Part shown: one piece after another, positions 617-14,002 of the stretch
Layout: every line of letters begins with the position of its first letter
Numbering within the stretch: the first letter of the stretch is position 1
Origin: Candidatus Kapaibacterium sp.
GTDB taxonomy: Bacteria > Bacteroidota > Ignavibacteria > Palsa-1295
Length of the DNA: 15,725 nucleotides
Assembly: GCA_038240295.1 (NCBI GenBank)
Contig: JBBSDW010000082.1
Span: forward strand, 1-15,725
Direction of reading: 5' to 3'
The notes under the pieces: generated by a model
Seen by the model: only the letters and a program-made list of their open reading frames with translations
What the model was told of the DNA's origin: nothing
The model's database searches: none
Position numbers and translations under genes: made by a program

Positions 617-2140
617 ATGAGAAATACAACTGATCGTTTCGTTACTTCTTTCTTTATCGCCTTTCTTCTTTGCGGTGCGGTTATCGGCGTTGAGGGCGTT
701 CGCGCTCAGGGTCTCAGTGATGCACTTCGTGTTTCTACGAACGAACTTCCAAGCGGGCCTCGCGCAACGGGTCTGAATGGATCGCAAATTGGAACCCCAG
801 GTGGATTCGACGCGCTGCAATGGAATCCTGCTGCAATTGCACCCAATGAGTTCAACGAGGTAGGCGTATCGCTTTATTATCGCGGTCACAATTCGGAAGC
901 ACAATTTCTCGGGACATCGCTAGGCGATAACATTACGACGATGTCGCTTGGCTCGCTTGGGCTAACTTCCGTTTCGCCGACGCGTAGAGGTCATCTCGTC
1001 TTCGGTCTATCGTACGATCAGGTTCGGGATTATACTTCGAGCTATTCTTTTAGCGCGGTCAATCCGAATTCTTCGTTTCTGAATACGCAAGGTTTTGTCA
1101 ACGATCCGGGCCTTGGCCCAAAAACGGAGCCAAACCAGTCATATCTCGATCAGACAAATCTTGCATGGCAGTTGCACCTGACATACAATGTACCCGACTC
1201 GGGTGTAGCATCGCTCAAGACGCCGTTCGCCGGCGGCTTGCAGCAATCGGGCACGGTCACGCAGGAGGGTGGAATGCACGCACTTCGCGGAGGCGCAGCG
1301 ATAGATATCGCTGAAGGAATTTCCGTAGGCGCGGCGCTCAATCTTTATTACGGCACGTACACGTATCGTCGCGACTTAGTGGAGAAAGATGTTGCGGGCC
1401 TGTTCAATTCTGGTGATTCCACACCCAATAATTTCAGAAGCGCAGATATCATTGACACACGGGACCAGGAGCAGACAGGTATCAGTCTAAAACTTGGGTT
1501 GCTCGCGTATCAAAATGACTTTGTAAAATTCGGCGCAACGATCGAAACACCGGGTGTCTATCACGTGAGCGATCACTTTCATCGCTCAGGTACCGCGGAC
1601 TTTTATCACGCAAGTTATGTCAGTACGCCAAACGTCGAAACCGATTTGACAAATACGTACGACATGACCACGCCGCTAAAGCTCGGAGCCGGTGTGTCTT
1701 TTCATTTCCTGGGCGCTTCTCTTATGGGTAGTGCGAACTACCAGGATATGTCGCAGACACGGTTCTCGAATAGCGATGTAGATCTTTCGAACTTGAACGA
1801 CGATGCGCGCAAGAACTTGCGTGGCGTACTCTCGTGGCAGATCGGCGCCGAATACATCATTCCATTTGCAGGAATTGCGCTGCGGGCAGGGTACGGCGTC
1901 GAGCCATCGTCCTATAAGAACGACCCTTCGACCTACGATACAAAGACCCTCTCGTTCGGCGCAGGAGTCTTGCTAAGTAAGTCCTTCGTGATCGAAGCGG
2001 GGTATCAGCGGGTAACGTATACGACCGACCATTTGCTCTACAGCGATCTTGATGTCGCCGGCAACCCTGTCAGCGCCGCGATCAACGTCGACGCCGTTAA
2101 ACGCGACCAGGTCTCCGTTGGATTTGGCTATCGATTCTAA
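617..2140 (+). CDS. FadL/OmpP1/TodX-family outer-membrane beta-barrel channel, possibly PorV/LptO-like given the T9SS context
   Basis: N-terminal Sec signal peptide (MRNTTDRFVTSFFIAFLLCGAVIGVEGVRAQ). An NPA motif lies early in the mature protein (LQWNPAAI), as in the FadL hatch domain. The body shows alternating amphipathic beta-strand patterns. The C-terminus ends in an aromatic residue (...VGFGYRF), typical of OM beta-barrels. Length is 507 aa. Confidence 0.75.
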   Translation: MRNTTDRFVTSFFIAFLLCGAVIGVEGVRAQGLSDALRVSTNELPSGPRATGLNGSQIGTPGGFDALQWNPAAIAPNEFNEVGVSLYYRGHNSEAQFLGTSLGDNITTMSLGSLGLTSVSPTRRGHLVFGLSYDQVRDYTSSYSFSAVNPNSSFLNTQGFVNDPGLGPKTEPNQSYLDQTNLAWQLHLTYNVPDSGVASLKTPFAGGLQQSGTVTQEGGMHALRGGAAIDIAEGISVGAALNLYYGTYTYRRDLVEKDVAGLFNSGDSTPNNFRSADIIDTRDQEQTGISLKLGLLAYQNDFVKFGATIETPGVYHVSDHFHRSGTADFYHASYVSTPNVETDLTNTYDMTTPLKLGAGVSFHFLGASLMGSANYQDMSQTRFSNSDVDLSNLNDDARKNLRGVLSWQIGAEYIIPFAGIALRAGYGVEPSSYKNDPSTYDTKTLSFGAGVLLSKSFVIEAGYQRVTYTTDHLLYSDLDVAGNPVSAAINVDAVKRDQVSVGFGYRF

Positions 2141-2165: not shown

Positions 2166-2718
2166 GTACAAAGAGATAAATTTGACCTCGACTCTACTTT
2201 GTTAAACAAGTCATCCTGAGCCCGACGAAGGATCTTATCGTAGGTTTGGCTAAATGTGTAAGTTCTGGCGATAGCAACGGATTGTACTAGAACTCATGAA
2301 GCGATGCGAACGAAATGCAAGATTCTTCATCGGGTTCAGAATTACCGTTTAAAAGCGTGTTGCTGGAAATAAGCAGTAACGCGTTTTCGAGAATCGAGGT
2401 CGGGTTGAACTCCGACCTACATCGAACGTAGGTCGGGATTCATCCCGACCGCGCTCTGTACAAAGAGATAAATGTTGGCCTCGACCCTACTCTATTTATC
2501 AAGTCATCCTGAGCCCGACGAAGGATCTTATGGTAGGTTTAGCTAAATCTTTAAGTTCTGGCGAGATCAACGGATTGTCCTCGAACTCATGAAGCGATGC
2601 GAACGAAAAGCAAGATTCTTCGTCGGGTTCAGCATGACCGTTTAAAAGCGTGTTGCTGGTAATACGCAGTAACGCGTTTTCGAGATTTGAGGTCGGGTTG
2701 AAACCCGACCTACATCGA
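2166..2718 (+). repeat. Two tandem copies of a ~260-nt noncoding, hairpin-rich unit (copy 1 2166-2425, copy 2 2458-2718, period ~292 bp) joined by a 32-nt hairpin spacer (2426-2457). Candidate duplicated structured RNA or repeat family. Strand not established.
   Basis: Direct alignment by eye gives roughly 85-90% identity over ~260 nt. Conserved blocks include caagtcatcctgagcccgacgaaggatcttat, ctcatgaagcgatgcgaacgaaa, ccgtttaaaagcgtgttgctgg, gcagtaacgcgttttcgag and gaggtcgggttgaa.ccgacctacatcga. No ORF of 60 aa or more in any frame. Each unit has a 27-nt long-range inverted repeat (copy 2: 2503-2529 against 2612-2638) and several local stem-loops. Confidence 0.8.
2398..2450 (+). other. Cluster of three overlapping hairpins built from alternating GGTCGG(G)/CCCGACC segments: H1 2398-2417, H2 2412-2436, H3 2431-2450. 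This gives mutually exclusive pairings, like an attenuator or a recombination site.
   Basis: ggtcggg-ttgaact-ccgacc, then ccgacctac-atcgaac-gtaggtcgg, then ggtcggga-ttca-tcccgacc (a perfect 8-bp stem). Segments 1:2, 2:3 and 3:4 are each complementary. Copy 2 keeps only one hairpin (2691-2710). Confidence 0.5.
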
Positions 2719-2744: not shown

Positions 2745-4688
2745 CTACTTCAATTGCAATAGATTCAACGAATACCCGCCATCGCCGGATAGGATACGAA
2801 CTTGATACGTACCAGTGCAAAAAAGCTCAGTGCTAATAAGCGCTGGATGGTTCGGCGAAAGTTGAGTGGCACTCCGGGAGACAAGTTTGCCAAGCGCATC
2901 GAAGACCTCGATCGTCACTTCTCCCAGATCGGCGTCGGAATGAATCAATGCATACGTGCTCGCGGGGTTTGGGATGATGCGCAGAGTCGGAATCTTGCTG
3001 TAGCGTGTGAATTGGGAGATCAGTGGTGTGCCGCAGCCGAGTTTGCCGCAGACAGTGCTGATGATCGGCGAAGCTGTTATGGCGCAGATCTCTGAAGATT
3101 GCGTGATCACAAACGAGTCGAGAATAACGCTCGTGCAACTGCTGTCCTTCGGATAAATATGAAAGACGGCATATCCGGCTACATTTCCTTTCATTGAAGC
3201 TGCAGCTTGCGGAAAGAGCACATGCGCGAAGCCAACCCAGCGCGCCGTCGTGGCGTCGATCTGGCGGCCAGCTTGATACGATCCTGCATAGACCAGCATC
3301 GTCGTATCGTAACGAACGGCAAAGTCAAGATCACCAATAAACGATTGACTACTCGAAATGATCGGCACATAAATACTGCCGCCGATCGTGTCGTTGGAGA
3401 TATCCGCGGTCGTGAATGTGACCGTGGGAGCGTCACCACCGACTGCACTCAACGGGATGGTTTGTTCTTCGCCGCTTGCGAAGATATGCAACCGTGCAGC
3501 GTAGCTGCGAGCACTGGTAGGCAAAAAGATAACGCTCACAGAATCTCCTCTCGAAGGTATCGCTACGAAATTGAGTGAGTCAGCTCCATCGATGCTGAAC
3601 GAATCGATCGATGGCGTCCCGCAAAGCCCCAGCACTGCAAGTCCCATGCTGACGTCCGAGCAGGGCAGGACCGTATCGGGAAAATTCACCGACAGTGGTT
3701 GCACGCTCAGACCAATGCGCGGCACCACGGAATCGCCGCCGCTATTTGTCGTGCGCCAGACATTGCCTTCGGAGTCAGTGGCAACGATGATGTTGTCGGT
3801 GATCGCCGAGATCAGACGCGTGTCATACGTATTACTCGGTCCGCCGATACTCGTCCAGATTACACCATGATCGACGGAGCGGTAAATGCCATCCGTGATA
3901 GAGGGACAATAGACTGCGTTAGGAGAAACCGCAATGCTCCCGCAGAAAAAGGGATGATTCCTGCTAACCTGATTTGTCCAGGTCGCACCCAGATCTGTTG
4001 TTAAAAACAGTTGCGAGTACGCGTCGGAAGGGGAGATGTAATCTTCGTTCGAAAGCACGACTCGCGAAAGCTGGCAAGAATCGACGCCGAACGTAAACGA
4101 ATCGAAGTCGATCGCGCCCGCGCTCGCAACCCACGTGGCGCCCATGTCAGTAGAGCGATGCAAAAATCCGCCTCCCTGATCGCCGCCAAAATAGAGAACC
4201 GATCCGTCGCGGGACGTCGTGATATAAAATGAAGCAGGGGATTGCACCACATTTTTCCAGGACGCGCCAGCATCGGTCGATAATGCTATCACGCCCGAGG
4301 AATAGGCGATGGCAGCAACCATTGGCGAGCCGATAAAGCAGGCGGAGAGCGCCGCGCCGACGCTCGCCAGCTTCCAGGTCGTACCGCCATTACGTGTGAT
4401 ATAGGTGCCATTGATACAGGCGGCGATCCCGTTCGAGGCATCGATGAACTGGATGTCGTTGGCCGTGACAATGTTTCCGACCTTCGCCCAGGTAATGCCG
4501 AGATCATCCGAGCGGAACACGCTCCCTTTCGCGAGCCAAAGTCTGCCGTCGCGGTAGCTCATCGCACCGTTGCTGCCGGCCGGAACAAGATTCGGTGCCA
4601 CCATCTTCCACTGCGCTTCCGAACGGATCGGAAGCGCGAGTGTGAGCGAGGTGAGCATAACCAGAATGATGAGCACCGATAGTCTCAT
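2745..4688 (-). CDS. Secreted BNR/Asp-box repeat beta-propeller protein (sialidase/Ycf48/sortilin-like fold) with a T9SS C-terminal sorting domain
   Basis: Signal peptide MRLSVLIILVMLTSLTLALPIRSEAQ. Multiple S-x-D-x-G-x-T-W Asp-boxes (SDDLGITW, TRNGGTTW, STDAGASW, STDMGATW, TTDLGATW, SVDHGVIW). The C-terminal ~75 aa (IIPNPASTYALI...VTIEVFDALGKLV...GTYQVRI...) match the Por_Secre_tail pattern. Confidence 0.85.
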   Translation of the reverse strand: MRLSVLIILVMLTSLTLALPIRSEAQWKMVAPNLVPAGSNGAMSYRDGRLWLAKGSVFRSDDLGITWAKVGNIVTANDIQFIDASNGIAACINGTYITRNGGTTWKLASVGAALSACFIGSPMVAAIAYSSGVIALSTDAGASWKNVVQSPASFYITTSRDGSVLYFGGDQGGGFLHRSTDMGATWVASAGAIDFDSFTFGVDSCQLSRVVLSNEDYISPSDAYSQLFLTTDLGATWTNQVSRNHPFFCGSIAVSPNAVYCPSITDGIYRSVDHGVIWTSIGGPSNTYDTRLISAITDNIIVATDSEGNVWRTTNSGGDSVVPRIGLSVQPLSVNFPDTVLPCSDVSMGLAVLGLCGTPSIDSFSIDGADSLNFVAIPSRGDSVSVIFLPTSARSYAARLHIFASGEEQTIPLSAVGGDAPTVTFTTADISNDTIGGSIYVPIISSSQSFIGDLDFAVRYDTTMLVYAGSYQAGRQIDATTARWVGFAHVLFPQAAASMKGNVAGYAVFHIYPKDSSCTSVILDSFVITQSSEICAITASPIISTVCGKLGCGTPLISQFTRYSKIPTLRIIPNPASTYALIHSDADLGEVTIEVFDALGKLVSRSATQLSPNHPALISTELFCTGTYQVRILSGDGGYSLNLLQLK

Positions 4689-4715
4689 TGGGCGTAGCGC
4701 GAAAACCAGCGCATC

Positions 4716-5693
4716 TTATTTCACTGGTCCATTTACGTTTAGCAACGGTGTAAGCTTCGAATCGAGTGGAGCAATCACAAAGGTCGCATTTTTCGAATTC
4801 GCAAGATCCTTCAGCGTCGTGATGTAATTGTATTGCAGGTATTGATTCGTCAGCGAACTTGCGATGATCTTCTGCGCATCCGAAATACCGCCAGCTTCGA
4901 CGCGCTTTCGGTCGGCCTCCTGCGACTCGCGCTGGAGTACGTACTGCATCTTTTGCGATTCCTGCTCGGCAGCGATCTTCTCGTCGATCGCGGTGCGCAC
5001 TTTCTCCGGCAATAAAATATCGCGAAGCAGAACCCCTTCGAGGATTATGCCGCGATTCTTGAACGAGCCGATCAACTTATCCCGAACCGTATTCGTATAA
5101 TCATCTCGTCTCGAAGCATAAAGGTCGGTCGCAGCATAATCAACCGCCGCATCGCGAAGCGAAGAGCGGATCTCCGGGCGCACGATCTTCTCCACATAAT
5201 CGAGACCGATCTTATTATAGACGACCGGTGCGCTGCTTGGCGAGAGATGATATTGTACGGTCACTTCGAGTTGCAGCGTGAGCCCATCTCGGCTGAGCAC
5301 CTGGATCGCATCGTCGCCTTTGAGCTGGCCTTCATTTGTCTTCGCCGACATCGTGTAAGCCTGCGTACGAATGTCCATGCGCACAACATTCACGAGCGGG
5401 TTGATCACATGAAAACCCGATTCAAGGGTTTCCGAACTCGTCTGTCCGAAGAGAACCTGAATGCCGACTTCGCCCGGCTCAATGGTGACGAATGCGCCAA
5501 AGGCCAGCACCAGCACGGCGAGTGAAATGAAGAGCGGGCCAGCTATGCCGAGCGCCCGGTGGATCGTTTCGCGCTGACGAACTTCGTTGCCGTATTGACC
5601 GGTCGGCCCGATCGTAAGTGCAAAACGTTTTTTATTGGCGAGCGCGAGAATTCCTAAAACGAGGAGGATTGCAGCGAAAAAGAGCGATTCCAT
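4716..5693 (-). CDS. SPFH/band-7 (prohibitin/HflC-like) membrane protein
   Basis: N-terminal transmembrane helix (MESLFFAAILLVLGILALANKKR). The body resembles band-7 domains (...QVLSRDGLTLQLEVTVQYHL..., ...LLPEKVRTAIDEKIAAEQESQKMQYVLQRESQEADRKRVEAGGISDAQKII...). It lies 27 bp upstream of, and on the same strand as, the BNR gene. Confidence 0.8.
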   Translation of the reverse strand: MESLFFAAILLVLGILALANKKRFALTIGPTGQYGNEVRQRETIHRALGIAGPLFISLAVLVLAFGAFVTIEPGEVGIQVLFGQTSSETLESGFHVINPLVNVVRMDIRTQAYTMSAKTNEGQLKGDDAIQVLSRDGLTLQLEVTVQYHLSPSSAPVVYNKIGLDYVEKIVRPEIRSSLRDAAVDYAATDLYASRRDDYTNTVRDKLIGSFKNRGIILEGVLLRDILLPEKVRTAIDEKIAAEQESQKMQYVLQRESQEADRKRVEAGGISDAQKIIASSLTNQYLQYNYITTLKDLANSKNATFVIAPLDSKLTPLLNVNGPVK

Positions 5694-5770
5694 GGTAGTG
5701 TGTTAGCGTAATAATGAGTGCGAATTTACTGGTTTCCCAGCGCGTTTCTCTGATTCCACTTATGCGAATC

Positions 5771-6439
5771 ATGGCAAAACTCATTTCGCTCAACGTTGGC
5801 CTTGCTCGTACGACGCCCGCTACAGAGCCGCCGTTCAATCGGGAATGGACTTCCGGCATCTGGAAAGATCCGGTCGAAGGAAAGCATTTTTTGAGCATTC
5901 CAAAAACGAAACGCACCCCGGCGCTCGCGGGAGATCAGCAGCAAGACCCAAGATATCACGGCGGTCCTGACAACGCGATCAACGTATACCCGATCGAGCA
6001 TTATGAACGCTGGCGCAAACATCTCCACCTTGCTAAGCTTGGCTTTGGCGCATTCGGCGAAAACATCACAAGCGAAGGCTTGACCGAGGCAAGCGTCTGC
6101 GTGGGCGATTCATTCGCGGTGGGCGATGCGATCCTGCAGATCACACAACCCCGCCAACCCTGCTGGAAACTTGCCTGGAAATGGAAAGCAAAAGATTTCG
6201 TGAAAGACCTCGTCCAAGCTGGCACAACCGGCTGGTACATGCGCGTGCTCAAAGAAGGCACTATACAGACGGGCGACACGATCACGCTACTTGAACGACT
6301 TCATCCCGATTGGACGATCGACCGACTCAACGGCGCTATGCTGGATAGATGGCTCGACACTGAGATCGCTCGCGAACTAATCGAAATGCAGGAGCTCTCA
6401 AACTCGTGGAGAGCCACGTTCGAAAGTCGCGTGAGGTGA
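5771..6439 (+). CDS. MOSC-domain protein (YiiM-like molybdenum-cofactor sulfurase C-terminal domain family)
   Basis: MAKLISLNVGLARTT... N-terminus and a GAFGENITSEGL...VCVGD...ILQITQPRQPCWKL core typical of MOSC/YiiM. The ORF is open from 5714, and ATG 5762 is an alternative start, but ATG 5771 gives the canonical N-terminus. It is divergent from the SPFH gene. Confidence 0.75.
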   Translation: MAKLISLNVGLARTTPATEPPFNREWTSGIWKDPVEGKHFLSIPKTKRTPALAGDQQQDPRYHGGPDNAINVYPIEHYERWRKHLHLAKLGFGAFGENITSEGLTEASVCVGDSFAVGDAILQITQPRQPCWKLAWKWKAKDFVKDLVQAGTTGWYMRVLKEGTIQTGDTITLLERLHPDWTIDRLNGAMLDRWLDTEIARELIEMQELSNSWRATFESRVR

Positions 6440-6653
6440 TAGAATAAAGCTGGTCAAGTGTTTTGCCAAATGGAGGCATTACGTGGACGTCGCGACCCAC
6501 GCAATTCCCGCCTACGTGGTAATGACACCTGCGTTCGTGTAGTGTCTTTCGGTTGTCATTCTCGCGGAGGCTGGAATACACGTTTGGGTCGCCGTAATGC
6601 GGGTGATGGATTCAAAGGTTTCTACCCTCAATGGTACTCACAATTTTTCGTTG

Positions 6654-6661
6654 TATATTTG
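6654..6661 (+). promoter_or_regulatory. Candidate Bacteroidota-type -7 promoter element TATATTTG (TAnnTTTG consensus) upstream of the 6735 operon
   Basis: The motif is read directly, about 75 nt upstream of ATG 6735. The expected -33 TTTG partner is not clean. Confidence 0.25.
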
Positions 6662-6734
6662 CATCCGACTCTACCTGTCATCGTTTCCTACGTTCTTTTC
6701 GATCGGCCAGAATTTGAAGCAGTTGCGAATTTCC

Positions 6735-7643
6735 ATGTTGGGAGTTTTCGCGATCAGCGCGCTTACAGTGCTGATGGCGTTTTGCGTGCTACCTGCCAAT
6801 TTGTTTGCGCAGCATCCCTATAAATACGACGTCGAATATCAATCGGGACGGAACGAGCTTTTTGTCTGGATGCACTTCGATTCTTCAACAGACGTAAACT
6901 ACGTACGTCAGAACGATTCGAGCGATGCGATGCCGCTCAAACGTGTCGATGTAAAAAGAATTTATTCGATCTCCGATCCGATTCGACCGCCGCATGAGAT
7001 CGAATGGACTTCGCATAAGGATGATGGCTGGGTGCCGATCGATCTCGATGCCTGCGATTGTCTCGGGCATGTTCGTTCCACGGCATTTCATCTTCTCGAT
7101 GCCAAACTTGGCCTGAGTTATCGGGGCAATAGCAGCTATACCCGAGTAACGCAAACGGGGCCGGTCGCAGAGAATTCTGTGTTCTTTAACCCGTTCAACA
7201 AGGGCGGCACGAACCTCGATATTGAGGCGGGCGCTGCGATCGGGTGGAGGGTTCATCATTGGGACCTCGGTCTGCAAGTCGAAGTGATCCCGACAGACGG
7301 CTTCTTTTATTTTCCGATCGCACTGCACGCGCGCTATTATTTCCTGAACGATTGCTGCACATGGAATCTCTTCGTGAACGCTGGCATTCCGTTCGATTTC
7401 CAAACGGGTGCACCGATCTTTATAACGCCGCTCTTCGATAGAAGGCAGCGCAGATATTTCAGCGCAGGTATCGGAAAGATCTGGCCGATGAACGAGTCGC
7501 ATGATTTCGCGATCGACTTGGGATACCGATATATGGTGATCCCGCTCGATCAGATCCAGTGCTGCCCGAGCATCGAGTTTCAGAATCGATTTCCAGCGCG
7601 CGAATCGCAGTCGATCTTTTTACAAGCAGGTTTATCATTTTGA
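6735..7643 (+). CDS. Secreted ~300-aa protein, candidate small outer-membrane beta-barrel. First gene of a three-gene operon.
   Basis: Signal peptide MLGVFAISALTVLMAFCVLPANLFAQ. An in-frame TTG at 6714 would add MKQLRIS and give a better charged n-region. The C-terminal half has alternating amphipathic strands (DLGLQVEVIP, FYFPIALHARYYF, NLFVNAGIPFDF, FAIDLGYRYMVIPL) and ends ...FLQAGLSF. The ORF is open from 6597, but that N-terminus lacks a signal peptide. Confidence 0.65.
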   Translation: MLGVFAISALTVLMAFCVLPANLFAQHPYKYDVEYQSGRNELFVWMHFDSSTDVNYVRQNDSSDAMPLKRVDVKRIYSISDPIRPPHEIEWTSHKDDGWVPIDLDACDCLGHVRSTAFHLLDAKLGLSYRGNSSYTRVTQTGPVAENSVFFNPFNKGGTNLDIEAGAAIGWRVHHWDLGLQVEVIPTDGFFYFPIALHARYYFLNDCCTWNLFVNAGIPFDFQTGAPIFITPLFDRRQRRYFSAGIGKIWPMNESHDFAIDLGYRYMVIPLDQIQCCPSIEFQNRFPARESQSIFLQAGLSF

Positions 7644-9988
7644 TGAGAATCTCAGGAATGCAAATTTTCAGCAGTCTGCAATTGCGGCAAGCCCCACGCT
7701 GGGCCTTGTTTGCGATCGTACTTCTGGCTGGCTGCATTCAGCACACGTTCGATCCGCAGCAGCTTAATCTGCATACGGTGGTCATCCAGACGCTAAAATC
7801 AACAGGGGCGGCTGCGAAAAATGTCGATGTCGCGCTCTTCGATGATAACACGACAACCGCCAACGAAATCTTTTCTGGAAATACCGGCGACTCGGGCGCG
7901 GTATCGATTCGGCTTGAGATCCCAACTTTCGGCCATAGCTATTCGCTAAGGATCAAGAAAAACGATGCGCTCGGCCAACTCATTTTCGCGCGGACGATCT
8001 ATCCGCTCAATCTGAAGTGCGTCGATACGCTGATCCAGATCGTGGTGCCGGAGGCCGACACGACCGTGCAGCGCGATTCCGTTTGCGGCCAGGATGTTCA
8101 GCGAACGTTAACATTCTTTGCCTGTGCTGACACTGAGGTAACACAAGCCTACACGCTCACAAACTGTTCGAACGCACCATATGTGGTGACAGCGAGCAAA
8201 TTTATTCTCGGCTCGCCATTTTCAGTCACCCCGGCTTCAGCCACGATTGCGCCTGGTCTTTCACAGCAGTTCACGATCACCTACGATGGACGAGGTCAAA
8301 CGGCGGACGCGAGCGCAAAACTTACGCTGACAACCACACCAGCCTCCGGCAATGTAACGCTCATTCTCATCGGCCATTTGCGACACGATTGCACGACGCC
8401 GACGCAGCAGATCGTTTGCGGTCAAAACGGAATTTCCGATGTGGTTCGCTTTGGTACTGTTTGCCAAAACGAAGTCACCGGCGCTGAATGTGTATCGCTT
8501 ACAAATACGAATCCAAGCGCTATTACGGTGAGCTTCCCGCAGGCGCCGATCCCGTTTAGTTACGTCGTGACCGATAATGCCGGCGCACAGCACGATGCCT
8601 CGCAGCCGCTCGTACTCAAGCAGGGAGAAAGTGTGACACTCTGCTTTTCGATCGATCCGCTTACTTCCGGTCTGATCAATGCGGATCTAAAATTGCCAAT
8701 GATCTGCGAGGGAAATCCTACGACGTTCACGTACGATATTCCACTCTTGGCGGTCTCGAAGATTTGCAACAATTGCCTTTGCACCGATTATTTCCACGAT
8801 CCGGTCGTGCTTGCGACGAATGTGAAAACGGGCGGCGATACCACCATCACGATCGAGATCTATCGTAACGATCTCAATTGCCCCGTGACGATCGATAAGG
8901 TTGCGCTTGTCGATGCGCTCTCCGAATGGACACTCGTTTCCGTAACACCTGCAGTACCGACGGTCGTGCCGACGGGAAGCCCAGTGACAGCTACGCTGAA
9001 ATTTCATGCGACGCATGCAGGAGCAAATATCGATCATCTTCATTTCAGCATTCTTCCTCAGGGCGCTACAACTCCGTGCACCGGCGAGATCATGCTAAAA
9101 GGGACGGGATGCAACGCAGCATGCGCCGCTGTCCTCATGCCGCCTGAGTGGTTGCCGAGTCCTCTTCCAAACGGACTCGACACATTGTTCTTTACCCAGA
9201 ATGGCGTTCCGCTCGTGTTTGTGAGCACCGCTGGAAGTTCGAGTATAAGCGATGAAGAGTGCATCACACTAAAGATGCCCGACACCGCATGCTCTGCTTC
9301 GACGTTCACGATCGTGCCACCGCGGAGTGCAATGTGGAGTGTGGCTACCACGCCTTCGCCATTGGTACTTGCTCCAGGCGCGATTGCGACCGTTTGCGTT
9401 CGCTTCACCGCTCCCGTGATCGATGAGGTCAGAAAAGATTTTACCCAGGCCGGACTTGAATTAAAGTATACAGACCTCCTGAAGATCATCGATCCGAATG
9501 GCTGCATGAAGAATGTACCGCTCAAGGCTGTGGTCGATACGCTGCCCGAATGTAAGGAATTTGATCTTGCACAGTACGGCTTTATCGGCTCGCAAAACGT
9601 GGTCTATCGTGAAATTTATTCGTTCGGCGGCGGAAGGCAGGACAACGTTCCGGCAGCGACAGGCGGCGCGCCGTCGTTCGGCGATATCTATCTTAAGAAC
9701 GCAACGCTCTTTAGCAGCGTCTCTGGCAACACGCCCCCAGGATTCTTCTTCTGGAAGAACAGCCAGACGCCGATCTGCAATAATATTCAGACAGTCACAT
9801 CGAGCCTGACTACGCTTGGACCTGCCGGACTAAGCTACACGTCAACGCTCACACTCGCCCAATATGATTGGATCGTCGTGAAAGTGACAGCAGGGACGTA
9901 TGCAGTGATCCAGGTAACGGCGACCTATCTTGATGGATTCAACATCCCTCATGCGGTCTGCTCGGTCATTTATCCATTTTATTACTGA
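7643..9988 (+). CDS. Large Cys-rich lipoprotein (~780 aa) composed of at least four tandem Ig-like/ASH-like (choice-of-anchor-D-like) beta-sandwich domains
   Basis: The start ATG 7643 overlaps the upstream stop (ATGA). Lipobox ...FAIVLLAGC. Internal protein repeats, e.g. VCGQDVQRTLTFFAC...TLTNCSNAPYVV...IAPGLSQQFTITY...KLTLTT against VCGQNGISDVVRFGTVC...SLTNTNPSAITV...LKQGESVTLCFSI...DLKL. About 30 Cys. No T9SS C-terminal domain. Confidence 0.75.
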   Translation: MRISGMQIFSSLQLRQAPRWALFAIVLLAGCIQHTFDPQQLNLHTVVIQTLKSTGAAAKNVDVALFDDNTTTANEIFSGNTGDSGAVSIRLEIPTFGHSYSLRIKKNDALGQLIFARTIYPLNLKCVDTLIQIVVPEADTTVQRDSVCGQDVQRTLTFFACADTEVTQAYTLTNCSNAPYVVTASKFILGSPFSVTPASATIAPGLSQQFTITYDGRGQTADASAKLTLTTTPASGNVTLILIGHLRHDCTTPTQQIVCGQNGISDVVRFGTVCQNEVTGAECVSLTNTNPSAITVSFPQAPIPFSYVVTDNAGAQHDASQPLVLKQGESVTLCFSIDPLTSGLINADLKLPMICEGNPTTFTYDIPLLAVSKICNNCLCTDYFHDPVVLATNVKTGGDTTITIEIYRNDLNCPVTIDKVALVDALSEWTLVSVTPAVPTVVPTGSPVTATLKFHATHAGANIDHLHFSILPQGATTPCTGEIMLKGTGCNAACAAVLMPPEWLPSPLPNGLDTLFFTQNGVPLVFVSTAGSSSISDEECITLKMPDTACSASTFTIVPPRSAMWSVATTPSPLVLAPGAIATVCVRFTAPVIDEVRKDFTQAGLELKYTDLLKIIDPNGCMKNVPLKAVVDTLPECKEFDLAQYGFIGSQNVVYREIYSFGGGRQDNVPAATGGAPSFGDIYLKNATLFSSVSGNTPPGFFFWKNSQTPICNNIQTVTSSLTTLGPAGLSYTSTLTLAQYDWIVVKVTAGTYAVIQVTATYLDGFNIPHAVCSVIYPFYY

Positions 9989-11916: not shown

Positions 11917-13752
11917 TCAGTGCACGATGCTGATCGCGCTTCGCGCAAATCCGGCCGGCGTTCTTAACTCCGCATAATAAACGCCAGACGGAAGCTTCGT
12001 TGCATCGAAGCGTTCGAGGTGTTCGCCTGCAGTTATTTCTTTTTCGAGAACATTCGCAACCTTGCGGCCTTCGACATCGAAGATCGCGAGTGAGACGTTC
12101 GTCCGTTCGGCGAGCGAAAATCGGAATGTCGTTGAAGTGTTAAGCGGATTTGGATAATTCTCCTCGAGCGTCGCGTTTGAAGTTGGCGAACTAATACGAA
12201 CCGCACCTACCGGAGCGGCATCGATCGGCACCCAGGCAGCGTAGGGATTCGTGATGCCGTCGTTCGTTCGCTCATCGCACCAAACAGGAATCGTGTAATT
12301 ATCGGTCATGATCGTCGCCGCGTAATCGCCGACGCCGAAGGAAGCAGACTGATTTGTTGAAAATGCACCGTGATCGGATGATTTGGAGGAAACGATCTGA
12401 TTGGTAGCAAACGTAAGCCCGCCATCGTAAGAATTCGCAGTATAGGCGTTGGTGATCAGCGAATTCACATCGGTTCTTCGATCATACCAGCTGATACCGA
12501 TGATCCCCCGACGGTTCACAGCGATGCTCGGATTATAATGATCACCCAGTCTCGTCTCGACATCATCATTGACGGTTGAGGGAGCCGACCAGGTTGCCCC
12601 GTTATCGGTTGAACGAGAAAAATAAATGTTGAGCGGTGTCGTTGCAGCATTGAGCGTACCGTTGGCGCACCAGGTCAGATAAAGAAATCCGAGGTGACTT
12701 GTTTGCGAGGTATCGATCGTAAAATTCGGACACGGGTACTGCCGACCCTGTTCGATACCCGGAACGGGATGACTATCATCCAGCGAAAATCCCGGAAAAT
12801 GCACATCCACGGCTTTTTGAGCTGTCGAAAAGGTCACACCTCCATCGTTCGAAACAGAATGCCAGATCGCGAACTGACTTCCATCCTGCGATCCAAAAAA
12901 AGTGCAGTGAACACCGCCTTTTGGATCTACGACCACATTCGGAAACTGGACCATGGCAAAATTTGCACCGGCGATCAGCGAACCGAGTTGATTGAAGCTC
13001 GTCCCATTCGGGATCATTCGGCGAACCTGGATCGATGCCGTGCGATTGATCGAAACGATCGCGGCGTAAAGCGATCCGCGATAAGGAGAATTGCTCCGAT
13101 CGGCCGCGAGCCATTCTTTGTCGTATGCCTGCGAAGCGCTTTGCGTGATCGTCCCGCTCGCAACATACCCATTGGGGGCGCGAGTGAACGTGGCGCCGCC
13201 ATCCGTCGAGCTTGCCCAATAGATCTTGTTATAGTAGTAACTCTGGTTGTTTGCAAAAAAGTAAATGTCGATCCAGGCCATATAGAGCTTGCCATCAGCG
13301 CCCCAGGTGAACATCGGATCGCCGCCGCCGCCGACCAAGGTGTTCTGCTCGACCGGCAGAGGAGTGAAGCTCGATTTTTTCCATGTGCGGCCAAAATCCT
13401 TCGTGTAGTAGATCGGGCAAACAACTCCGAGGGTGCTCGCCGTATTGATCGGCGAGACGATGATATTCGTGCTGTCGGCTGGATTCATCGTCGCAAAAAC
13501 CTCTGCCTCCGCCGTGCGTTCGATATCGACATCAATCTCCCGGGGCCCGCCAAGTGTCTCACGTTTGTGTTCCGTTTCATTCGTCTTGGCAATCGCAGGA
13601 CCTCGCATCATCGAGGATTTCTCTCGAAGATACTTAGCGATAAGGCTATCGCCCATCCACATCGATTGCGCCGAAACAAGCGCAGGCAGCGATGCAAACG
13701 CGAGCACAAGGATAATTGCAACAGCAATTATACGGACAGGTGTTTTTTTCAT
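11917..13752 (-). CDS. Secreted BNR/Asp-box repeat (sialidase-like or glycoside-hydrolase-like beta-propeller) protein with a T9SS C-terminal sorting domain
   Basis: Signal peptide MKKTPVRIIAVAIILVLAFASLPALVSAQ (the ORF is open to 13800, but the 13752 ATG gives the canonical signal). Asp-boxes KDFGRTW, SSTDGGATF, SVSNDGGVTF, SRSTDNGATW, NSYDGGLTF. C-terminal domain ...NYPNPLNTSTTFRFSL...VSLAIFDVEGRKV...LPSGVYYAELRT... Confidence 0.85.
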   Translation of the reverse strand: MKKTPVRIIAVAIILVLAFASLPALVSAQSMWMGDSLIAKYLREKSSMMRGPAIAKTNETEHKRETLGGPREIDVDIERTAEAEVFATMNPADSTNIIVSPINTASTLGVVCPIYYTKDFGRTWKKSSFTPLPVEQNTLVGGGGDPMFTWGADGKLYMAWIDIYFFANNQSYYYNKIYWASSTDGGATFTRAPNGYVASGTITQSASQAYDKEWLAADRSNSPYRGSLYAAIVSINRTASIQVRRMIPNGTSFNQLGSLIAGANFAMVQFPNVVVDPKGGVHCTFFGSQDGSQFAIWHSVSNDGGVTFSTAQKAVDVHFPGFSLDDSHPVPGIEQGRQYPCPNFTIDTSQTSHLGFLYLTWCANGTLNAATTPLNIYFSRSTDNGATWSAPSTVNDDVETRLGDHYNPSIAVNRRGIIGISWYDRRTDVNSLITNAYTANSYDGGLTFATNQIVSSKSSDHGAFSTNQSASFGVGDYAATIMTDNYTIPVWCDERTNDGITNPYAAWVPIDAAPVGAVRISSPTSNATLEENYPNPLNTSTTFRFSLAERTNVSLAIFDVEGRKVANVLEKEITAGEHLERFDATKLPSGVYYAELRTPAGFARSAISIVH

Positions 13753-13830
13753 TTGATCAATGACGTCAGAAGCTAACCGATTGAGAAACCCAAGCCTCAC
13801 AGAAAAGTTACACGCGCTTTCTAGGAGTTG

Positions 13831-13855
13831 TTAGTTCTTAGGGCTTAGTTCTTAG
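13831..13855. promoter_or_regulatory. 11-bp direct repeat TTAGTTCTTAG x2 (13831-13841 and 13845-13855, period 14 bp), 80-100 bp upstream of the minus-strand BNR gene start. Candidate regulator-binding site.
   Basis: Exact repeat read directly. A second direct repeat, GGGGGATGACGCA (13858-13870) and GGGGAGATGACGCA (13914-13927), lies further upstream. Confidence 0.3.
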
Positions 13856-14002
13856 TTGGGGGATGACGCAGTCAGCACACGAATTAAGAATCCGCAGGGC
13901 GTATCTTTATTTGGGGAGATGACGCAATAGAAAGTGGCTGAATGCTCCGAGTTCTTTTTGTAGGCGATCAACTTCAGTTTGACCTTATCGGAGCACTCAG
14001 CA

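Follow-up and report, generated by a model that had tools for sequence, protein, structure and literature searches.

RESULTS

A tandem repeat lies between two convergent genes

The window, meaning the whole 15.7-kb stretch of DNA that was analysed, is one complete contig (15,725 bp). Its + strand carries, at positions 617 to 2140, a gene for a FadL/Toluene_X-like outer-membrane protein, as judged from the open reading frame (ORF) list and from homologues that have PF03349. Its - strand carries, at positions 2745 to 4688, a gene for a BNR/Sortilin-type T9SS-sorted protein, recognised from the ORF list, a Pfam scan and homologues. Both genes converge on a repeat. The homologues of both flanking genes include some annotated as Candidatus Kapabacteria. 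A first-pass annotation had described the gap between these genes as free of ORFs, and the longest ORF fully within it is indeed only 38 aa.

Analysis with Tandem Repeats Finder resolved positions 2166 to 2718 into 1.9 copies of a 293-nt period with 90% matches and a score of 929. Gapless alignment of 2182-2425 with 2475-2718 likewise gave 90% identity, in agreement with the tandem duplication at 85 to 90% identity that had been reported. The unit length of about 260 nt given at that time has to be revised to 293 nt, because copy 1 holds an additional hairpin. From the same tool, the repeat search and the alignment, copy 1 spans 2166-2458, the extra junction hairpin included, and copy 2 spans 2459-2718, neither being assigned a strand; a faint likeness beyond copy 2 runs on to about position 2740. 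The copies differ at 24 positions. Each 293-nt unit contains a head-to-head heterodimer of xGTC-tagged palindromic units, a 14-bp hairpin and one or two GTAG-tagged palindromes, and this cluster, which resembles REPs (repetitive extragenic palindromes), occurs at one locus only in the window.

The inverted arms are themselves hairpins of two stem subtypes

The heterodimer of copy 1 begins with a type-A palindromic unit on the + strand at 2210-2236, found by repeat search and assigned to a family by motif matches, which reads aGTC-ATCCTGAG-CCCGA-CGAAGGAT-CTT. The same search found this 5' arm unchanged in copy 2 at 2503-2529, so that the identity of the 5' arms noted in the first-pass annotation holds. 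The 3' arms are inverted type-A units, located on the - strand at 2319-2345 in copy 1 (reading GTAATTCTGAACCCGATGAAGAATCTT) and, by repeat search, at 2612-2638 in copy 2 (reading GTCATGCTGAACCCGACGAAGAATCTT). The arms at 2503-2529 and 2612-2638 are each 27 nt long and 89% complementary, with 82 nt between them, and the three matches for the arm were reproduced in 0 of 200 shuffles. Read as + strand RNA, the long duplex of copy 2 has one C.C mismatch and two G.U pairs, the same defects that had been listed for a 27-nt inverted repeat enclosing about 82 nt.

Each arm can also be read as a hairpin of its own. In the sequence ATCCTGAG / CCCGA / CGAAGGAT, eight stem positions opening with A-T and T-A enclose a loop of 5 nt, and stem positions 6 and 7 are the non-Watson-Crick pairs G.A and A.G. 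Two stem subtypes are present in the window, ATCCT...AGGAT in the 5' arm and, on its own strand, ATTCT...AGAAT in the 3' arm; both have the tandem G.A pair and the 5-nt loop. A double change from C:G to T:A distinguishes the arms. Within each local hairpin this change is compensatory; the long duplex is weakened by it, with a G.U pair remaining at arm position 22 and, at position 6, a mismatch that is C.C in copy 2 and C.A in copy 1. The second G.U pair, at arm position 11, stems from a G-to-A change in the core. Sequence, alignment and subtype comparison showed that the local stem ATTCT/AGAAT is intact in the 3' arm of copy 1, contrary to the view that this arm had decayed and that copy 2 was the maintained one.

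Both dimers carry their tags on the outside, share the 82-nt spacer and join arms of the two stem subtypes. The tags of the four arms are AGTC, AGTC, GGTC and GGTA; three of the four contain GTC, with a first base other than that of CGTC or TGTC, and the arm tail is CTT. With nearest-neighbour parameters, the local arm hairpin is weak in the window (-4.4 kcal/mol, z about 0), and the predicted fold of this locus is dominated by the long duplex.

A 14-bp hairpin and three GTAG-tagged palindromes complete the unit

Downstream of the 3' arm, sequence and fold searches identified a hairpin, here termed hairpin C, with a 14-bp stem (AAAAGCGTGTTGCT / GCAGTAACGCGTTTT) at 2352-2387 in copy 1. Its counterpart in copy 2, at 2645-2680, has a fold energy of -18.9 kcal/mol (z = -4.4); neither was assigned a strand. 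This feature had been recorded as a small TTGCTG/CAGTAA hairpin with differing loops; it is true that only the loop varies between the copies, but the stem is more extensive than described.

Three GTAG-tagged palindromes were found by repeat search: B at 2397-2420 on the - strand (reading GTAGGTCGGAGTTCAACCCGACCT), B' at 2428-2450 on the + strand (GTAGGTCGGGATTCATCCCGACC) and B'' at 2690-2713 on the - strand, at the end of copy 2 (fold energy -16.8 kcal/mol). All three have the form GGTCGGG-N6-CCCGACC with GTAG at one end, a stem of 6 to 7 bp and a loop of 6 nt, and the two inverted B-type copies end in CCGACCTAC. B and B' make up a dimer with tags inside, 7 nt apart, and B' together with its neighbour makes a 26-nt palindrome of -38.8 kcal/mol. 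Two earlier observations are thus borne out, namely that both copies close with a GGTCGGG...CCCGACC hairpin (B and B'') and that the junction between the copies partly duplicates this terminal hairpin (B'). GTAG-tagged REPs and REPINs are mobilised by RAYT (TnpA-REP) transposases, and their hallmark is GTAG at one end of a short palindrome with a stem of 5 to 13 bp and a loop of 2 to 20 nt; they form multi-copy families in which REPs flank the RAYT gene. No further copy of the GTAG palindrome was found outside the locus in 1.5 Mb of retrieved loci, and the B hairpin had 4 matches in viral contigs, which is about chance level.

The arms match a hairpin family found across phyla

Motif matches place the arms in a dispersed family of hairpins that spans several phyla and has the form xGTC-ATCCTGAG-loop-CGAAGGAT-CTN. 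The motif ATCCTGAGC-N4-CGAAGGAT had at least 120 matches in viral contigs; the 4 matches of the B hairpin, which is GC-matched and likewise has 17 specified bases, served as the control. An exact 23-mer of the window arm was present in a Candidatus Kapaibacterium MAG (two contigs), a Polaromonas MAG and a Pirellulales MAG, and a degenerate arm pattern matched 32 metagenome loci. A 30-mer of the commonest family variant, which has a GAAG loop where the window has CCGA, matched plasmids of Hymenobacter, Phocaeicola, Planktothrix, Gloeothece, Nostoc and Granulicella. The plasmid matches sit in unannotated DNA or in ordinary protein-coding genes, and no repeat or RNA feature was annotated at them in the records inspected.

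When hairpins were matched on stem and core alone, with the tag left unconstrained, 128 distinct sequences were obtained. The 4-nt tag at the 5' side was TGTC in 65, GCTC in 13, CGTC in 9 and CCTC in 9; the tail was CTN in 66 of the 128, and the loops were mostly GNAG or YTGT. Some units of the family stood alone, others lay in direct tandem, and others formed inverted pairs with 40 to 60 nt between them. Seven more dimers were seen elsewhere, all seven with tags outside and often with arm loops that are not complementary to each other. In a crude test, no bias was detected in the orientation of hairpins relative to neighbouring genes (29 same-strand, 37 opposite-strand). In Pfam scans, no transposase turned up among neighbouring genes, whether of the window or of the Kapaibacterium loci, nor among ORFs bracketed by inverted hairpins; no RAYT gene was found in the window or related loci, and clustering of 1,922 ORFs near hairpins yielded phage structural genes only.

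The nearest genome having the exact arm is the Kapaibacterium MAG, in which two contigs carry 11 copies within 13 kb. At one of its loci (L121), four intergenic regions in a row, at 3100-3300, 5430-5910, 6817-7135 and 7550-7820, hold arrays that repeat about every 155 nt. A short hairpin comes first in each array unit, with an inverted, long-looped hairpin after it, and the arrays alternate between the same two stem subtypes as the window arms, and between orientations. They occur in both orientations, between divergent and convergent genes alike, and their neighbours are housekeeping genes (GcpE, rhomboid, a BNR/T9SS protein and a PASTA protein) with no transposase. The BNR gene of L121 is a full-length homologue of that in the window, 32% identical, and an array follows it too. 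A shared ancestral array behind the two BNR genes was considered and judged a coincidence, because all intergenic regions at L121 have arrays and a closer relative (L284) has none.

The remainder of the unit had no counterpart in the collections searched. The whole unit gave no BLAST match in about 290 retrieved loci, plasmids and phages, and a 23-mer of the spacer gave none in metagenome contigs; the 82-nt spacer, hairpin C and the GTAG hairpins had no match elsewhere in the sequences searched. A literature search with DNA and peptide strings returned nothing relevant.

The element is absent from syntenic relatives

The orthologue nearest to the FadL-like gene, at 76% aa identity (loci L158-L161), has rplO 155 nt downstream, and a 55% orthologue has a DUF4921 gene 30 nt downstream. 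Neither the unit nor the arm motif was found at either orthologous locus, in up to 21 kb examined. On the other side of the repeat, L284 retains the Band_7-BNR gene order, with a BNR protein of 54% aa identity and a Band_7 gene of 76% nucleotide identity; downstream of its BNR gene lies an unrelated 187-nt spacer in which the element was not found. On this comparison of sequences, the element is lineage-specific. A short-read assembly of the same organism ends at window position 2233, within the 5' arm, in keeping with a repeat, since assemblies typically break at repeats.

Neither RNA family searches nor the two copies point to a small RNA

The Rfam scan that the first-pass annotation had proposed as a check found no family at threshold when the window was scanned in gathering mode. 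Extended to the window plus 15 related loci, in gathering and E-value modes, it returned only tRNAs and sub-threshold RF02901. This model (AaHKsRNA41) has a gathering score of 97; the - strand reached 32.3 bits and the + strand 24.6 bits, in an alignment that rests on the arm motif CUGAGC-N4-CGAAG. A hammerhead or other ribozyme core in the CUGA...GAA motif was considered and rejected, as the hammerhead core was not satisfied by eye and Rfam agreed; the first-pass annotation had likewise reported no hammerhead or riboswitch core. A tRNA scan found none. One weak sigma-70-like match was detected, on the - strand, where 0.8 were expected from shuffles in a scan that models sigma-70 promoters only. 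A run of eight T residues lies on the + strand at 2728-2735, 15 nt past the last hairpin, with no canonical terminator, and the scan of the window found no intrinsic terminator.

The repeat is predicted to fold stably on both strands, at -111.6 kcal/mol (z = -8.3) on the + strand and -89.9 kcal/mol (z = -5.7) on the - strand; the strongly negative z-scores are due to the inverted repeats. Of the 24 differences between the copies, 15 fall at positions unpaired in the copy-2 fold (binomial P = 0.012), an enrichment that is biased because the structure used for the test came from copy 2. None of the 24 is compensatory, and eight of the nine differences at paired sites break the pair in copy 1. 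The two copies thus give no support for RNA-level selection, and the constraint on RNA structure, long-range fold included, that had been proposed from them is not upheld.

Covariation was assessed in a set of sequences for which only the core CTGAGCGAAGCGAAG was fixed and the flanks were left free. In this core-only set, the first pair past the core was T-A in 21 sequences, G-C in 17, C-G in 17 and A-T in 8. The first position past the core was paired in 69 of 115 sequences, compared with 43 expected, and at least four further contiguous pairs were present in 11 of 108, compared with a permutation mean of 1.6 (maximum 7 in 1,000). Across these aligned sequences, the covariation preserves the predicted local hairpin of the arm and not the 27-bp long duplex.

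DISCUSSION

Relation to known palindromic repeats

Two REP superfamilies were described by Di Nocera, De Gregorio & Rocco (2013; PMC3733652). As characterised there, the CGTC-tagged superfamily includes Neisseria dRS3 and Rickettsia RPE-4 and RPE-6, comprises four families (CGTC-1 to CGTC-4) and is listed from five phyla. Its units have an unpaired, terminal CGTC tag, with variants TGTC and CCTC, a stem of 8 to 9 bp opening with A-T, a loop of 4 to 5 nt and a 3-nt tail with the consensus CCA (PMC3733652). They are mostly arranged as head-to-head dimers with tags outside and spacers of 20 to 100 bp; heterodimers are common, some copies are intragenic, occasional clusters reiterate dimers plus flanking DNA, and the class is presented there as having no associated transposase (PMC3733652).

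The arms resemble this superfamily in many respects. The arm family has a terminal unpaired tag that commonly ends in GTC, and the published forms dominate (TGTC in 65, CGTC in 9 and CCTC in 9 of 128); the stem has eight positions opening with A-T and T-A, the loop is 5 nt and the tail 3 nt long. The window dimers are head-to-head and heterodimeric with a spacer of 82 nt, and dimer plus flanking DNA is reiterated. Some copies of the arm family lie inside genes, and no transposase was found beside the copies examined. The stem of the arm family differs, however, in having an invariant tandem G.A/A.G (CTGAG...CGAAG), whereas the described families are Watson-Crick. The family tail is CTN rather than CCA, and the window tags are AGTC and GGTC, with one GGTA. 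The arm family is also wider than the five listed phyla, spanning Cyanobacteria, Acidobacteria, Planctomycetes and many viral contigs. Compared with the description in PMC3733652, the tandem-G.A type may be undescribed there, perhaps because the screen, as outlined in that paper, dropped palindromes having more than one mismatch.

The three window palindromes with flanking GTAG, a stem of 6 to 7 bp and a loop of 6 nt are similar to GTAG-tagged REPs and REPINs, and two of them dimerise with tags inside; unlike those repeats, they had no further copy in the sequences searched, and no RAYT gene was seen. As a mosaic of palindromes in alternating orientation, the locus is also reminiscent of E. 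coli BIMEs. RF02901, an Aggregatibacter sRNA found by RNA-seq, has as its 5' domain a long hairpin in which both arms carry the core GCUGAGCUUGCCGAAGC, inverted. The likeness is confined to the arms, the better match is on the - strand, and its score falls far below gathering. The paper defining the Aggregatibacter sRNA contains no mention of repeats.

Origin of the locus and alternative explanations

In our view, this Kapabacteria-like genome most probably carries here a cluster of palindromic DNA repeats of the REP type, reiterated in tandem with flanking DNA. On this reading, the arms form a head-to-head REP dimer, a REPIN-like unit. The first-pass annotation had offered a structured repeat family as its second choice, and it is this option that fits arms drawn from a widespread hairpin repeat family and terminal hairpins that are GTAG-tagged. 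Its first choice, a novel small RNA, is not supported: no Rfam family at threshold, no promoter match above shuffle level and no terminator were found, and syntenic relatives lack the element. The dimer would have been acquired by REP-type spread, whose mechanism is poorly understood and probably based on single-stranded DNA; the CGTC/TGTC class has no known transposase of its own. Dimer and flanking DNA may then have been reiterated once, through slippage or unequal recombination between palindromes, and the additional B' palindrome found where the copies meet would fit such an event. Any effect on the cell would be secondary. Because the cluster lies at the 3' ends of two convergent genes, the hairpins, if transcribed from either gene, would act as stable 3'-UTR structures, and by analogy with proposals made for REPs elsewhere they could hinder 3'-exonucleases or reduce convergent read-through.

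A classical MITE would account for the same arms as the 27-bp terminal inverted repeats of a 136-nt, IS-derived element mobilised by a DDE transposase and later duplicated with its flanks. The inverted repeat around 82 nt fits such an element in size and form, comparable inverted pairs occur at other metagenome loci, and the short-read assembly of the same organism breaks within an arm. MITEs had been set aside in the first-pass annotation for want of terminal inverted repeats, an argument that overlooked the 27-nt inverted repeat, itself the head-to-head REP dimer. We regard this origin as unlikely on other grounds: no target-site duplication is present at the arm boundaries (TATCAA| ... |CGTTTA), the whole 136-nt element was not found elsewhere (metagenome contigs, about 290 loci, plasmids and phages), and no transposase gene lies near any copy examined. 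Arms also occur solitarily and in direct tandem arrays, the loops of the two arms are often non-complementary in other dimers, and every arm forms a hairpin of its own whose stem covaries; the covarying hairpins fit REP units and not transposase-binding ends.

The two remaining alternatives, both improbable, assign the locus a role in RNA. A novel structured sRNA, or a duplicated pair of sRNAs, on the + strand would rely on the 27-bp duplex and the downstream hairpins, and we hold it to be very unlikely. The folds are very stable and better on the + strand, the G.U pairs arise on that strand only, and RF02901, with its weak match to the arm motif, is an sRNA detected by RNA-seq. That match, at 32 bits, falls short of the gathering score (97), the lone sigma-70-like match lies on the - strand at shuffle level (1 compared with 0.8 expected), and no intrinsic terminator accompanies it. 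The excess of copy differences at unpaired sites inherits the bias of the copy-2 structure, compensatory changes number zero, and eight of nine paired-site changes are disruptive. The unit is also missing from syntenic relatives and from every collection scanned, and its arms are generic repeats with no orientation bias to genes in the crude test. If instead selection for a dedicated bidirectional termination or mRNA-stabilising module, and not repeat spread, were primary, one could explain a cluster between convergent ORFs with stable hairpins on both strands and the T8 run at its + strand end. Such a module appears highly improbable given that the scan found no canonical terminator, that arrays in the related Kapaibacterium MAG also lie between divergent genes, in promoter regions, and that the orthologous intergenic regions of relatives hold nothing similar.

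Significance

As a probable cluster of REP-type repeats, the locus is a real feature with an ordinary explanation, and a false lead for a new sRNA is removed. The remaining interest is the hairpin family, which is cross-phylum, present on viral contigs and without an Rfam entry. As a speculative proposal with only a small chance of being correct, the tandem-G.A hairpin could go beyond a usual lineage-specific REP and be an uncatalogued element whose near-invariant apical core, shared across several bacterial phyla and many phage contigs, is recognised on one strand (ssDNA or RNA) by a conserved protein. Such a protein might be an HUH-type nuclease or some other enzyme for mobilisation or processing, and the clusters seen in Kapabacteria, this one among them, would then be its amplification products. 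Hairpin-rich, low-energy intergenic duplications in Kapabacteria/FCB genomes can be REP clusters. The TGTC-tagged palindrome, whose tandem G.A core is fixed, is abundant in viral contigs and across phyla, and a model of it would help annotators because the palindrome breaks assemblies and seeds spurious ORFs.

Tandem hairpin arrays in a related Kapaibacterium contig

Tandem arrays of the arm hairpin were found in four successive intergenic regions of another Candidatus Kapaibacterium MAG contig (JBBRNY010000065.1, locus L121:3100-7820), in which the hairpins alternated in orientation with a period of approximately 155 nt. The BNR/T9SS gene of this locus (3394-5433) was flanked on both sides by inverted array copies, which were 84% complementary over 170 nt.

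The core hairpin in AaHKsRNA41 and in other loci

The stretch of the window matching RF02901 (AaHKsRNA41) was located at 2425-2645 on the minus strand. The 5' domain of this Rfam sRNA family consists of the CUGAGC-N4-CGAAG hairpin as an inverted pair, and the Aggregatibacter "sRNA" could in fact be the transcript of a REP dimer.

The core hairpin was also observed in a Polaromonas MAG (L122:1430-1470 and 2180-2262), in short direct tandems with differing stems, such as GGGCTGAGCCTGTCGAAGCC. Since the first of these pairs apparently lies within an AraC-family ORF (987-2075, minus strand), it may represent an intragenic REP insertion. In two viral contigs (L052:9720-9840 and L081:1782-1880), the hairpin GCCATCCTGAGCCTGTCGAAGGATGGC and a CT-rich spacer formed perfect tandem arrays with a period of 49 nt.

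Assembly break within the repeat

An independent short-read assembly of the window's sequence (Logan contig SRR24807096_56287) ended at window position 2233, within the 5' arm of copy 1. Repeated k-mers are typical points for assemblies to break in this manner.

Other repeats and ORFs in the window

Upstream of the BNR_2/T9SS gene at 11917-13800 (minus strand), the intergenic region contained, at 13826-13930, 4.6 tandem copies of the heptamer AGTTCTT (13826-13857) and two copies of GGGGA(G)ATGACGCA, near 13858 and 13913. At the contig start, several short tandem repeats with periods of 3, 9, 15, and 18 nt (42-460) fell inside overlapping ORFs, suggesting a low-complexity, repeat-containing coding region. 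The ORFs at 6597-7643 and 7559-9988 (GTG start), both read from one strand, shared 85 nt (7559-7643); the true start of the second gene is probably further downstream.
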